From NCBI GenBank assembly GCA_900313725.1, contig OMSK01000030.1:1-34102 (forward strand): DNA of 34,102 nt, given 5' to 3'. Position numbers and translations under genes: made by a program. The stretch is from an uncultured Bacillota bacterium. GTDB lineage: Bacteria; Bacillota_I; Bacilli_A; RF39; UBA660. Under the pieces are notes generated by a model. It saw only the letters and a list, made by a program, of their open reading frames with translations. It did no database searches and was not told the origin of the DNA. This document shows, piece after piece, positions 18,013 to 24,104 of the stretch (positions within the stretch are counted from its first letter, which is position 1; each line of letters starts with the position of its first letter).

Positions 18013-18237
18013 TTATCTATGTGATTTTGCTAGTTCTTGTTGTTCTGGATTTTTTTGAATTCCTTCAAGAAGTCCTCTTAAATAATCTCCCTCAGCAGCT
18101 AATCCTTCTTTCATTTTTTCAGATTCTACTTCAGGTGAAAATGATAATCCATCTTGTAATCCTAATTGATATTTTTCTTCTGAACTTAAATTTGTTAAAT
18201 CAACACCATTTATACTTTTAGATATATTTTCTTTCAT
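18013..18237 (-). CDS. small hypothetical protein
   Basis: GGGGAGG RBS, own extended -10 (TGTTATACT, about 18258-18267) and a terminator. Confidence 0.7.
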   Translation of the reverse strand: MKENISKSINGVDLTNLSSEEKYQLGLQDGLSFSPEVESEKMKEGLAAEGDYLRGLLEGIQKNPEQQELAKSHR

Positions 18238-18322: not shown

Positions 18323-19195
18323 TTAGTGTAAATCATTATTATCTAATTGTTTATTATTATCTTCATTAATTTGTTCATAATTTTGTTTTAAATTTTCTTT
18401 TGATTCCATAATTTTAGAAATTATTTTTTTTATAATTATTAAGACAATACCTATAGTTATTTCTAATATTCCTATTATTAATATTTGATCTAATTTTATT
18501 GTTATATTAAATTCAAAATTTTGTCTATTCATTATTTGTTTTACTATATAATTTAATATAAAATATAATCCACATATTAAAATTCCAACTGATATTAAAG
18601 AACTTCCAAATGTTGTCATCCATTTATATAGTGAACCATTTATTATCATTAGCAATATTACACATATTATTATTAATATTATCAATACAATTTGAATATT
18701 ATTTGATGTTAATTTTGCATATATTTTAATTGCTTCTGTAGGTGTATTACCTATTTCCGATTTCATATTTTTAAAACCATCATTAATGGTATTATAAATA
18801 CTATCATGTGTTTCTTGTGATTTCATTTCTGATTCTGTTAGTGGTGCACTTAATAAATTATTAACTGTTTCTTTATTATTTACACAATAATTTACTATAT
18901 TTTGTACCGTTTTTTCACTTACTTTATGATTATTATCAGATAAATAAGTCATATAATCATTTACAACATTATCTATTATTGTTTTAGCTTCTTGATTATT
19001 TATTATTTTATCTATTTCTTTTTCATTATCAATATTATTTTCTATATATTCAGATATAATTTTTTCTTTAGCTACTCCACCAATGATTTGCTTTTTAACT
19101 ACATTTTTAAATATTATATTTAAAGAAAAAAATAATAGTAAAACAAATAATCCTGTACTAATTATAAATGATAAAAAAACTCTTATGTATTTCAT
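18323..19195 (-). CDS. hypothetical membrane protein (N-terminal TM, soluble domain, 3 C-terminal TMs)
   Basis: Hydropathy pattern; AGGTGA RBS suits ATG 19195 (ORF track start 19204). Confidence 0.75.
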   Translation of the reverse strand: MKYIRVFLSFIISTGLFVLLLFFSLNIIFKNVVKKQIIGGVAKEKIISEYIENNIDNEKEIDKIINNQEAKTIIDNVVNDYMTYLSDNNHKVSEKTVQNIVNYCVNNKETVNNLLSAPLTESEMKSQETHDSIYNTINDGFKNMKSEIGNTPTEAIKIYAKLTSNNIQIVLIILIIICVILLMIINGSLYKWMTTFGSSLISVGILICGLYFILNYIVKQIMNRQNFEFNITIKLDQILIIGILEITIGIVLIIIKKIISKIMESKENLKQNYEQINEDNNKQLDNNDLH

Positions 19196-19227
19196 ATTTA
19201 TCACCTATTTAAGTATATCATAGTATT

Positions 19228-19257
19228 AAAAAAAAGTATATTTATTATACTTTTTTT
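19228..19257. terminator. symmetric intrinsic terminator after the noc-like gene
   Basis: AAAAAAAAGTATA-tttat-TATACTTTTTTT. Confidence 0.6.
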
Positions 19258-20869
19258 AATTTTTATCTATTTTAATTGTAAATTCATATGTTCCAGGTAA
19301 ATCTAATTCATCTGAATCAACTTTATAACCCATTCCCTCAATTTGTTTAATGCAATCTCTCATTGTATTAATTACAGTATTTAAATCTACTCTTTGTTGT
19401 TTATTATCAACTTCTGGCATTAAAGGAGTTAATTCTTGAGTTTCAGGTAATGGATAATTTGGTGTTGAAACAAATGGAGCTGGATTTACTTCTGGAATTG
19501 ATTGACTTGTTTCAAATGGATTAAATCCTCCTTGTGGTTGCTCTGGTGCTCCTCCAAATGGATTGAATGCTGGTGCCTCTTGTTGTACTGGTTCTGGTTG
19601 TGGTGCAGCTGGCGCTTCATTCATACTAAATGGATTAAATCCTCCTTGTGGTTGCTCTGGTGCACTAAATGGATTGAATGCTGGTGCCTCTTGTTGTACT
19701 GGTTCTGGTTGTGGTGCTGCAGGTGCTTCATTCATACTAAATGGATTAAATCCTCCTTGTGGTTGTTCTGGTGCTCCAAATGGATTGAATGCTGGTGCTT
19801 CTGGTTGTGCTGGTTCTGGTTGTGGTGCTGCTGGCACTTCATTCATACTAAATGGATTAAATCCTTGTGGTTGTTTTGGTGCTCCTCCAAATGGATTGAA
19901 TGCTGGTGCTTCTGGTTGTACTGGTTCTGGTTGTGGTGCTGCTGGTGCTTCATTCATACTAAATGGATTAAATCCTCCTTGTGGTTGTTCTGGTGCTCCA
20001 AATGGATTAAATGCTGGTTTTTCTGGTTGTACTGGTTCTTGAACACCAAATGGATTAAATGGTTCTTTTTCACCTACTCCATTATTTTGTACAGGTTGTA
20101 TATCTTGTGCATTATTTGCTATATTATCAATATTCATAAATCCAGGGTTTTGATTGTTATTTGAATTATCTATTATTGGTTCACTTGGTATATTAAAATT
20201 ATTATTTACTTCATTAAAATTATTATTCATATTATCACCTTTTTCTTCTTTTATTTCATTTTCGTTTGGATTCAATATACTATTAATTAATTGATCAGTT
20301 TTTCTAACTGTTAATCTTTCTTTAATTATTCTATTTAATATGTTTGGTTGTTCTTCTTTAGGCAATCTAAGTAATGATCTAGCATGTCTTTCAGATATTT
20401 GTTCTTCTAATAATGCTTCTTGAACTTCATCAGAAAGATTTAATAATCTTAACTTATTAGCTATAGTTGATTGAGTTTTTCCTAATTTAATTGCTAATTC
20501 TGATTGATTTAAATATCCCATATCAAGAATTTTTTTATAAGATAGTGCTTCTTCTATAGGTGTCATATCTTGTCTTTGAACATTTTCAGTTAATGCAACC
20601 TCAGCACTCTCTTTATCATCTATATCAGTTATAATTGCTGGTATAGTTTTTCTTCCAGCAATAACGCTTGCTTTATATCTTCTTTCTCCAGCTATTATTT
20701 CATATTTATCTGCAATTTTTCTAACAATTATTGGTTGAATAACACCATGTTTTTTTATTGATTCAGATAATTCTAAAATAGCTTTTTCATCGAATTTTAT
20801 TCTAGGTTGAAATCTATTTGGCAAGATATCATCGATATTAAGAATAAATACTTCTTTACGCATTCTCAT
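19256..20869 (-). CDS. noc: Noc-like ParB-family CTPase with large low-complexity insertion
   Basis: FQPR, IIAGERRYKA, ENVQRQD; HTH GKTQSTIANKLRLL..SERHARSL and C-terminal NTMRDCIKQIEGMG..EFTIKI are Noc-type; located after rsmG; start probably 20869 behind GAGGGG (ORF track start 20896). Confidence 0.8.
   Translation of the reverse strand: MRMRKEVFILNIDDILPNRFQPRIKFDEKAILELSESIKKHGVIQPIIVRKIADKYEIIAGERRYKASVIAGRKTIPAIITDIDDKESAEVALTENVQRQDMTPIEEALSYKKILDMGYLNQSELAIKLGKTQSTIANKLRLLNLSDEVQEALLEEQISERHARSLLRLPKEEQPNILNRIIKERLTVRKTDQLINSILNPNENEIKEEKGDNMNNNFNEVNNNFNIPSEPIIDNSNNNQNPGFMNIDNIANNAQDIQPVQNNGVGEKEPFNPFGVQEPVQPEKPAFNPFGAPEQPQGGFNPFSMNEAPAAPQPEPVQPEAPAFNPFGGAPKQPQGFNPFSMNEVPAAPQPEPAQPEAPAFNPFGAPEQPQGGFNPFSMNEAPAAPQPEPVQQEAPAFNPFSAPEQPQGGFNPFSMNEAPAAPQPEPVQQEAPAFNPFGGAPEQPQGGFNPFETSQSIPEVNPAPFVSTPNYPLPETQELTPLMPEVDNKQQRVDLNTVINTMRDCIKQIEGMGYKVDSDELDLPGTYEFTIKIDKN
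19514..20063. repeat. intragenic tandem repeat, 111-bp (37 aa) unit, about 4.5-5 copies
   Basis: AAATGGATTAAATCC recurs at 19514, 19628, 19739, 19850 and 19961; encodes QPEPVQPEAPAFNPFGAPEQPQGGFNPFSMNEAPAAP. Confidence 0.95.
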
Positions 20870-20900
20870 AACTATCTTTCCCCTCTTTATTATCATATTA

Positions 20901-20929
20901 ATGATACTATAATTTTAGTAAAATAGCAA
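20901..20929 (-). promoter_or_regulatory. putative sigmaA promoter of the noc-like gene
   Basis: TTGCTA (20924-20929), 17 bp spacer, TATCAT (20901-20906); lies downstream of the rsmG terminator. Confidence 0.55.
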
Positions 20930-20945
20930 TATTTCCCGGGAAATA
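20930..20945. promoter_or_regulatory. Noc-binding site (NBS) perfect palindrome
   Basis: TATTTCCCGGGAAATA, identical to the Bacillus subtilis NBS consensus. Confidence 0.85.
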
Positions 20946-20958
20946 ATTTTAAAAATTT

Positions 20959-20984
20959 AAAAAAAAGACTATTTAAAGTCTTTT
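20959..20984 (-). terminator. intrinsic terminator after rsmG
   Basis: AAAAGACT-atttaa-AGTCTTTT with a T-run on the minus strand. Confidence 0.55.
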
Positions 20985-21677
20985 ATTTTTTATTTCACTA
21001 TTTTTTCTTGGATATTTTTTATTAGTTTTTTTAATTTTTTCTACCTTAATAATTGTTCTATTACTTTCTTCAATAGGTAGTTGAAATCTATCAATTTTTA
21101 TTATTTTAGAATCTAATTTTTCTAATGCATTCCTACTTTCTTCAATTTCAGTATCAATATTTGCTTTCATAGCTATAAAATATTTATTTATTTTAACCAT
21201 TGGAATACTATATTCTAATAAAACAGATAAATGAGCTACAGCTCGAGCTGTTACTATATCATATTTTTCAATATTACTTTTAGCAAATTCTTCTGCTCTA
21301 TCATGATATACTTCTATATTATCTAATTTTAATTCTTTTATAACCTCTTTTAAAAATTCTATTCTTTTATTTAATGAATCTACTAAAATAACTCTTAAAT
21401 TTGGAAAAACTATTTTAAGCACTAATCCAGGAAAACCTGCTCCTGTACCTATATCACATAATGATTTTTCTTGTTTTAAATCTACTACTTTTGATAATAT
21501 AAGAGAGTCATAAAAATGTTTTAAAAATACTTGTTCTTTATCAGTTATATTTGTTAAATTAAATTTTTCATTCCATTCTACTAATAATTCATAATATTTA
21601 TTTAATTGTTCTAATTGATTATCATTTAATTCTATATTAATCTTTTTTAATTCTTCAATAAATCTATTTTGATTCAT
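20973..21677 (-). CDS. rsmG: 16S rRNA m7G527 methyltransferase
   Basis: KHFYDS, DIGTGAGFPG, VTARAV. Confidence 0.96.
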   Translation of the reverse strand: MNQNRFIEELKKINIELNDNQLEQLNKYYELLVEWNEKFNLTNITDKEQVFLKHFYDSLILSKVVDLKQEKSLCDIGTGAGFPGLVLKIVFPNLRVILVDSLNKRIEFLKEVIKELKLDNIEVYHDRAEEFAKSNIEKYDIVTARAVAHLSVLLEYSIPMVKINKYFIAMKANIDTEIEESRNALEKLDSKIIKIDRFQLPIEESNRTIIKVEKIKKTNKKYPRKNSEIKNKRL

Positions 21678-23621: not shown

Positions 23622-24104
23622 CTAAACATATTTTTTTATTTTAATACTATCTATTACCTTATTTATAAAATAATTTTCTTTTACATCATTATTAAAATTA
23701 TATGTTATATTTAAATCATAATTTTTTGATAATATTTTTAGAAAACATAAAATAGTTCTAGTATTTTCATCTAAAAATAATTGATATTCCCATAATTCAA
23801 ATATCTTATTTGGTAAATTATTTGTATCATTAAATATTAACATTTCTTTTATTTCTTGCAATAATTTATTTGCCTCTGTTATTAATGAATCAATATTTCT
23901 AATTTTGCAATATTCTAAATCATAAATATCATTAAATAAAAAGATATGTAATTTTTCTAAATAATCAGTACTAAAGATACTTTCACAATTAAATGTATAT
24001 GCTTCATTAATTAAATGATATTTATTATTAAATAAAATATATTCTATATTTGATAATTCCTTATCATTGTATATACCTAATTTGTTATTTTTTAATGAAT
24101 TCAT
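23622..24104 (-). CDS. degenerate Fic-domain-like protein
   Basis: YLEKLHIFLFNDIY..KIR and YQLFLDENTRT aligning with the Fic HPFxxGNGRxxR motif but lacking His and Gly. Confidence 0.55.
   Translation of the reverse strand: MNSLKNNKLGIYNDKELSNIEYILFNNKYHLINEAYTFNCESIFSTDYLEKLHIFLFNDIYDLEYCKIRNIDSLITEANKLLQEIKEMLIFNDTNNLPNKIFELWEYQLFLDENTRTILCFLKILSKNYDLNITYNFNNDVKENYFINKVIDSIKIKKYV

Follow-up and report, generated by a model that had tools for sequence, protein, structure and literature searches.

How does the nucleoid occlusion protein Noc operate when the part with which it reaches the membrane has gone? The question is posed by a gene on a 34,102-nucleotide contig of an uncultured Bacillota bacterium (OMSK01000030.1 of assembly GCA_900313725.1; this contig at its full length is the window referred to below). 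The gene, on the reverse strand at 19256-20869, encodes a ParB paralogue of 537 amino acids plus stop, and by its sequence the product is the Noc orthologue of a lineage of uncultured gut Bacilli with small genomes (about 1.2 Mb, 24% GC). CTP-binding motifs, Noc DNA-recognition residues, a Noc C-terminal domain and, at the gene's own promoter, a Noc binding site (NBS) can all be recognised. The N-terminal helix is lost, and the usual linker of about 15-20 residues between the helix-turn-helix (HTH) and dimerisation domains is replaced by about 290 acidic residues that are predicted to be disordered and include eleven FNPF motifs.

The N-terminal part comprises the ParB CTPase domain (Pfam ParB_N, residues 7-98, 20576-20851, E 6e-32) and the ParB HTH domain (HTH_ParB, residues 100-198, 20276-20572, E 3e-31), and a Noc-type C-terminal domain of one helix and two strands (residues 491-537, 19259-19399) ends the protein, all on the reverse strand as are the other parts of the gene given below. 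In an AlphaFold2 model from a 66-row alignment, residues 1-200 are folded with confidence and the C-terminal 47 residues have a pLDDT above 90, with most of residues 201-490 below 50 except for a short helix at 247-253. The motifs from which a first-pass annotation, made on the letters alone, had deduced a CTP-binding ParB all lie in the 537-residue frame together with its HTH and C-terminal domains: GERRYKA (from residue 61, 20669-20689), ENVQRQD (from residue 95, 20567-20587), GKTQSTIANKLRLLNL (from residue 130) and SERHARSL (from residue 159). E62, R63, R64, E95, N96, Q98 and R99 show no variation among 66 homologues. A peculiarity of these 66, which belong to the long-linker clade, is that Lys invariably stands where the GERRxR patch ends in Arg (K66 of the window protein), the Arg being kept in the genome's Spo0J and in the canonical short Nocs of the class.

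That the protein belongs with Noc rather than with Spo0J, as the same annotation proposed, follows from structure and family matches, a tree split, rsmG upstream, a separate soj-spo0J pair and the NBS at its own promoter. The top three matches in the Protein Data Bank (PDB) are Noc chains (7nfu, 7ng0 and 7ol9, E 2e-55 to 4e-48). The best NCBIfam model is TIGR04285, matched in two stretches with 282.3 bits; its curated cut-off is 315, and the missing N-terminus and inserted linker lower the score. When the C-terminal 68 residues are searched alone, residues 488-536 match positions 207-255 of the 255 in that model (E 3.9e-4), and the genome's own Spo0J matches it only up to position 229. In a maximum-likelihood tree of the CTPase and HTH core with 51 rows (the long-linker relative L031, whose GGRR variant was missed by the motif filter, is omitted), 22 Spo0J-type rows split off with a Shimodaira-Hasegawa-like approximate likelihood ratio test (SH-aLRT) value of 100. 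All 23 long-linker rows fall together with support 92, and six short canonical Nocs of other families lie apart from them. Clustering with Spo0J, which had been named as what would speak against the assignment, is thus not what the tree gives. The ParA-binding motif LG(R/K)GL does not occur in the window protein. Contig C32 of the genome, which comprises 1.15 Mb in 105 contigs at 69% completeness and 24% GC, encodes a further ParB immediately behind the ParA/Soj gene, and this is Spo0J, 289 amino acids long with recognition residues R/I/R/G.

The HTH recognition residues of the window protein are Q133, K139, N144 and R161, i.e. Q/K/N/R at positions 173/179/184/201 of Caulobacter ParB; alignment to solved Noc structures bears out the set originally proposed. 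N at 184 is also present in canonical short Nocs of the same class. Lys at either 179 or 184 is reported to be enough to license Q173 and R201 for reading of NBS (PMC7383237), and K179 is retained. Departures from the set occur in the clade. In one member of the genus (L010, G004:C12) the residues are R/K/N/G, within GKTRST... and ISEGHAR, and no NBS-like, parS-like or hybrid site was found in its upstream region; its DNA specificity may be changed or lost. The 527-residue long-linker member left out of the tree (L031, G009:C27) has GGRRY for GERRY, E/K/S/G at the recognition positions and an RFF-type linker motif, and is possibly a CTP-blind divergent copy.

Set beside the Nocs on record (B. 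subtilis YyaA, G. thermoleovorans Noc, TIGR04285, PDB 7nfu, 7ng0, 7ol9 and 6y93), the protein shares a CTPase with GERRx(R/K) and ENxQR, Q173, K179 and R201 in the HTH, the C-terminal domain, the place after rsmG, the lack of LG(R/K)GL and the presence of NBS in the genome. It differs in having N rather than K at 184, Lys in place of the last Arg of GERRxR, a TIGR04285 score under the cut-off, a linker of about 290 residues where canonical relatives have 12-21, and 2-3 strong NBS sites in its genome (near dnaA in three genus relatives); it is also without some 22 N-terminal residues, those of helices alpha1 and alpha2. With chromosomal ParB/Spo0J it has in common the fold, the domain order (CTPase, HTH, linker, C-terminal domain) and loading sites close to the origin. 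From these it is distinguished by Q173 and R201, by having neither a ParA neighbour nor the ParA-binding motif, and by the separate Spo0J next to Soj in a genome with eight parS-like sites on contig C91.

The NBS consensus is reported as TATTTCCC-GGGAAATA (PMC7383237), and an exact copy of its 14-bp core, ATTTCCCGGGAAAT, lies at 20931-20944, 1 nt upstream of a -35-like hexamer of the gene; it is the sole exact core in the whole window. Genome-wide, with the B. subtilis consensus and at most one mismatch, as in all counts here unless stated, there are two exact cores and one with a single mismatch, and three composition-matched control palindromes give none at that stringency and 1-2 at two mismatches. 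The second exact core (C75:7916-7929, L060) lies inside a coding region that by eye resembles an rsmI-type methyltransferase gene, with genes resembling by eye pth and mfd around it; three genus relatives have an exact core about 22 kb from noc. The one-mismatch site is 3 bp from the first of eight clustered parS-like sites (at most two mismatches, within 840 bp at C91:2329-3169, L061), an array situated between gyrA, a deaminase gene and dnaX. A comparable array with the same neighbouring genes in a relative (G001:C6:50907-51879) has ten parS-like sites in a regular tandem arrangement of 37-38 bp, plus one exact site about 620 bp off. In each of G001, G002 and G003 there are exactly two NBS-like sites and they flank dnaA, one, some 8 kb from dnaA, in the promoter of noc and the other about 14 kb beyond the far side of dnaA, with the parS array between the far NBS and dnaA. 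At two or fewer mismatches an NBS-like site precedes the gene in 5 of 6 genus loci, the window's included (L010 is the exception). What stands out of these sites is their position beside the origin. A part in origin organisation, which had been suggested from the window alone, gains some support from the exact site at the gene's own promoter and the dnaA-flanking sites of the three relatives.

The loss of the membrane-binding part is evident from the point at which similarity to the solved Nocs begins, residue 3 pairing with position 24 in 7nfu_A and residue 4 with position 27 in 7ol9_A, and hence the region with helices alpha1 and alpha2 is absent. In Noc this region is reported to be the membrane-targeting part and necessary for function (PMC8429893, PMC4331003), the key residues of the B. 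subtilis helix being K2, F5, R7, F8 and F9 (PMC4331003). Its membrane binding is described there as driven mainly by three Phe, each F-to-A change abolishing it (PMC4331003). The absence of the helix, already noticed in the initial inspection, is general, as PNRFQPR is preceded by 16 residues here and by 14-17 in 117 of the 118 that show the motif among the 120 best database homologues. In a sister family of the same order, an rsmG-adjacent Noc-like protein of 247 residues (L081:486-1229, G025:C29) also lacks the N-terminal helix; its linker is short, its C-terminal domain is Noc-like, and its CTP-box III and HTH motifs are degenerate. With a short-linker protein of this kind also helix-less, helix loss and linker gain are not strictly coupled, and helix loss may have preceded linker growth.

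The one start that might restore an N-terminal extension is an upstream ATG at 20896-20894, from which the open frame would run over 19256-20896, and it had been pointed to as a possible source of a functional amphipathic helix. The ATG at 20869, supported by Pfam, NCBIfam and the starts of relatives, has a Shine-Dalgarno-like GAGGGG 10 nt upstream (20880-20885, read from the sequence). The upstream ATG has no Shine-Dalgarno, and the putative extension would enclose that GAGGGG. Beyond the shared MRMRKEV start, the frame is without ATG, GTG or TTG before a stop in 3 of 5 genus relatives (L006, L008 and L010), and public gene calls of relatives agree with the start at 20869. Because a Shine-Dalgarno is wanting and the upstream start is not conserved, its use is unlikely. 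A promoter-like TTGCTA and TATCAT pair with a 17-nt spacer (20901-20929, reverse strand, a consensus match only, 9 of 12 positions) ends at 20901, so that transcription would start about at the upstream ATG, and a leaderless start there is just conceivable. The count of -35/-10-like sites in the promoter region is not above that in shuffles.

Between the folded parts, residues 201-490 (19400-20269) are predicted from AlphaFold2 and composition to be an acidic disordered linker, with 60 P, 40 N, 31 E, 29 A, 28 Q, 26 F, 6 K and no R, and a net charge of -30. Such a charge makes direct contact with DNA or anionic membranes less likely. Two short motifs come early in it: FNIPSEPII (residues 225-233, 20171-20197), common to most aligned homologues, and the widely conserved NPGFMNIDNIANNAQDI (residues 241-257, 20099-20149), to which the predicted short helix belongs. 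The FNPF motifs, counted as 11 at first reading and numbering exactly that, extend over residues 271-452 (19514-20059), their 22 Phe being in motifs 13-24 residues apart. The core of the array (19514-20039, 526 bp by Tandem Repeats Finder) consists of 4.7 tandem copies of a 111-nt unit, 37 amino acids with two FNPF each, at 90% matches. In 2000 composition-preserving shuffles of the linker, which ignore tandem duplication, 0.75 NPF is expected and none reached 11. Among copies in register, synonymous and non-synonymous codon differences stand at 3:1, 5:2 and 4:1, and GC content is 37-47% in the linker and 42-47% in the array, versus 24% for the genome. The Noc frame accounts for 11 of the 66 NPF in genome open reading frames (ORFs) of at least 80 amino acids, and no other such ORF has two or more. 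An ESM Atlas search with the repeat region gave no usable match. Forward-strand ORFs over the repeat (19502-20164 and 19563-20042), W/C/L-rich or G/C/A-rich in composition, are rejected as genes, being mirror frames of the repeat.

In a survey of 40 related genomes, 24 of the same family and 16 outside it, the long form is present in 23 of the 24, with open frames of 340-622 amino acids; the remaining one (G005, 81% complete) yielded no ParB homologue but the Spo0J type. In the 16 outside genomes there is no open frame longer than 310 amino acids. All long forms begin about 16 residues before PNRFQPR. At least 120 further long forms, 380-603 amino acids, are present in the public protein collection, and complete short-linker forms among near relatives were not found there, as none of the 120 best shorter matches has both ends and all are fragments. 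Across genera the order of linker motifs is FNIPxxPII, NPGFMDIDKIxxxAxDI (with a short predicted helix, the block reaching pLDDT 76 in AlphaFold2 for a relative), often ADIDxLL, a single G[KR]FFxMF, scattered hydrophobic-NPF, [FY]xLxDDxxF and LxPxMP, and then the C-terminal domain.

Of these elements it is the NPF that sets the window's genus apart. Sister genera have the single [KR]FFxMF, whose [KR]FF core resembles residues R7-F8-F9 at the heart of the helix in B. subtilis Noc. The window's genus is without that motif and has NPF in multiplied form. In five of its members, arrays contain 6-11 NPF at periods of 37, 24, 17, 38 and 21 amino acids and with differing spacers, the common feature being an invariant NPF core, usually after F or M (one array is cut by a contig end). 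A sixth member retains both the NPF array and [KR]FFxMF. Among 120 database homologues, those with three or more NPF have [KR]FFxMF in 5 cases and lack it in 27, and those with fewer than three have it in 72 and lack it in 16. The expectation that the linker would be kept in relatives thus holds for the long linker and not for the FNPF array, which is confined to one genus. From the sequences compared, what is family-wide is the loss of the helix, the long acidic linker and the other short motifs.

The reading preferred here, given not quite an even chance, is that the NPF array is a multivalent docking module for a protein partner. The Noc clamp would load, gated by CTP, at the few NBS sites that flank the origin, and contact with the rest of the cell would have shifted into short linear motifs of the linker. 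Where sister genera have their one helix-recalling [KR]FFxMF, the window's genus would have exchanged it for the hydrophobic-NPF motif in 11 copies. The array would be under selection as a set of low-affinity contacts with a protein at the envelope or divisome, and its avidity would supply what the helix supplies to canonical Noc. Selection on NPF is suggested by the invariant core of the five arrays, by the mostly synonymous differences between copies and by the high GC content of the array. Short aromatic motifs in a Pro/Gln-rich chain are familiar from eukaryotic disordered regions with NPF, DPF or FG repeats, such as the ligands of EH domains and the FG repeats of nucleoporins. The likeness is by analogy only and suggests multivalent weak binding; there is no homology, and the chain of the window protein differs in being strongly acidic.

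Several findings weigh against a docking module. With no second ORF having two or more NPF (in a genome 69% complete), a shared NPF-recognising hub is not indicated. The exchange of [KR]FFxMF for NPF was probably one evolutionary event, in which case the counts from the 120 homologues are not independent evidence, and 16 of the 120 have neither element. AlphaFold2 gives pLDDT below 50 at most FNPF positions, the best block there (residues 381-390) averaging 51, and confidence is likewise low at [KR]FFxMF in the model of a relative, so that neither gives a sign of folding or docking. The TIGR04285 score of 282.3 is, as noted, under the cut-off of 315. Five canonical-Noc genomes of the same class have 5, 4, 0, 3 and 0 NBS sites at the same stringency, none exact, and the low NBS number may reflect the strict criterion. 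Four public runs gave no contig that crosses the array from end to end, and the exact copy number, from short-read assembly, is provisional.

This last point bears on whether the whole might be an assembly artefact or the protein really a Spo0J-type ParB, which can scarcely be credited. Short reads do handle a 526-bp tandem array poorly, and in sheep-gut run X6 the array is in short contig pieces at 1.5-5 times the depth of the flanks, as expected for a collapsed repeat; a TIGR04285 score below the cut-off would also fit Spo0J. The array is nevertheless real. Other sources yield a 96%-identical protein of the same length, 537 amino acids, and likewise with 11 NPF, the protein's own cluster has seven member sequences on four contigs, and two contigs of that sheep-gut run, an independent sample, match the two flanks and reach into the array (5.2 kb and 7.3 kb). 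The presence of the long form throughout nearly all of the family, the distinct Soj-Spo0J pair and the place of the protein in the tree count likewise against this explanation, and the doubts expressed at the outset about assembly and about absence of the linker in relatives are countered by the same material. An entropic acidic spacer, of which only length and charge would matter, with the NPF repeats a by-product of replication slippage without specific binding, is possible, if rather improbable. It would accord with the wide variation of linker length (about 60-370 amino acids) and sequence in the family, the differences in copy number among close relatives (3-11 NPF in proteins of 390-565 amino acids), the 90% DNA identity and hence fairly recent origin of the repeat units, the homologues with neither element and the lack of structure in AlphaFold2. 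It accounts poorly for NPF being the sole element kept in five differently built arrays, for the mostly synonymous differences, for a Pro/Ala/Gly-rich array whose GC content goes against the mutational bias of its genome, and for several other linker motifs being kept across genera.

Homotypic association is another conceivable use of the same layout. FNPF stickers with Pro/Gln/Glu spacers could bridge Noc clamps into a condensate round the origin-flanking sites, where the loading sites are few and clustered, and B. subtilis Noc is itself reported to phase-separate (PMC9606368). The 22 Phe in recurring motifs suit a sticker-and-spacer scheme; a net charge of -30, with 6 K and no R, would favour self-repulsion, and most family members have 0-2 NPF. 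A condensate is rated unlikely. A wider clamp lumen, suggested from the window alone, may be a further effect of the linker. As a substitute for the helix, insertion of the Phe pairs into the membrane interface, with eleven weak contacts standing in for the lost amphipathic segment, is rated very unlikely. The Phe-driven membrane binding of B. subtilis Noc (PMC4331003) is a precedent, and the array replaces a motif that resembles the R7-F8-F9 stretch. Set against this, the Pro of the motif excludes a helix, the acidic flanks have none of the basic residues that stabilise binding to anionic lipid, and FNPF windows have a low hydrophobic moment (0.13-0.15), though moments of canonical N-termini, [KR]FF motifs and FNPF windows overlap (0.10-0.60) and are not discriminating.

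The surroundings of the gene are those of a classical origin region: dnaA, rnpA-side genes, yidC, jag, mnmE, mnmG, rsmG and then noc. As in canonical noc loci, of which the first-pass annotation had cited that of B. subtilis, rsmG (GidB; 20973-21677, reverse strand) is directly upstream, and it adjoins the homologue in 25 of 29 related loci. Between mnmE and mnmG there is an ORF of 160 amino acids without Pfam match (23622-24104, reverse strand). Downstream of noc, also on the reverse strand, are a multi-pass membrane protein of 293 amino acids with sub-threshold Pfam matches only (18323-19204) and an ORF of 74 amino acids (18013-18237); both are without equivalents in related loci, where uvrB may come immediately after noc. 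The membrane protein was considered as a partner and rejected, having no counterpart in the other 28 related loci. Mimicry of the FtsZ C-terminal peptide by FNPF was also rejected, as the C-terminus of FtsZ, DIPAFLRKR in this genome and in two genus relatives and a near variant of it in two sister genera, does not resemble FNPF. Among the runs containing the window stretch, from about 10 studies, most bear the label of a bovine or sheep gut metagenome, and a 243-nt contig of metatranscriptome run X20 is identical over 20626-20868, which is no proof of transcription.

Division genes were sought in five family genomes (the window's own, G000, with G001, G003, G007 and G008, four of the five at least 90% complete). 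Each of them has FtsZ with a DIPAFLRKR-type end, penicillin-binding proteins, DivIVA and a further small protein with a DivIVA domain, and in none does a MinD exceed the NCBIfam cut-off, the best matches being Soj genes. For Min-less, walled, FtsZ-dividing gut Bacilli of this sort it is tentatively envisaged, as a rather improbable reading, that Noc is an origin-flanking CTP clamp whose NPF array, with no helix, would couple the origin to the envelope or divisome or form an origin condensate.

Full-text searches listed no paper that describes Noc without the helix or with a long linker, or that deals with NPF motifs in proteins of the ParB type. A 2025 survey of the ParB fold has Noc keeping its canonical architecture, and the word 'disordered' does not occur in its main text (PMC12704722). 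The amphipathic helix is held in the reports on it to be necessary for Noc function (PMC4331003, PMC8429893), yet a family of uncultured gut Bacilli appears from its genomes to keep an otherwise intact, NBS-recognising Noc without it. The origin-flanking NBS pair beside a parS array is relevant to the way in which the origin region is shared between two paralogous clamps. Were the linker motifs a new interface, they would constitute a natural experiment on rewiring a CTP-gated DNA clamp to a different cellular partner, and an example, rare among bacteria, of a motif amplified within a disordered region. Should the helix-free NPF reading be true, these organisms would have a helix-independent form of nucleoid occlusion or origin anchoring, with the first NPF-type motif system described in bacteria.

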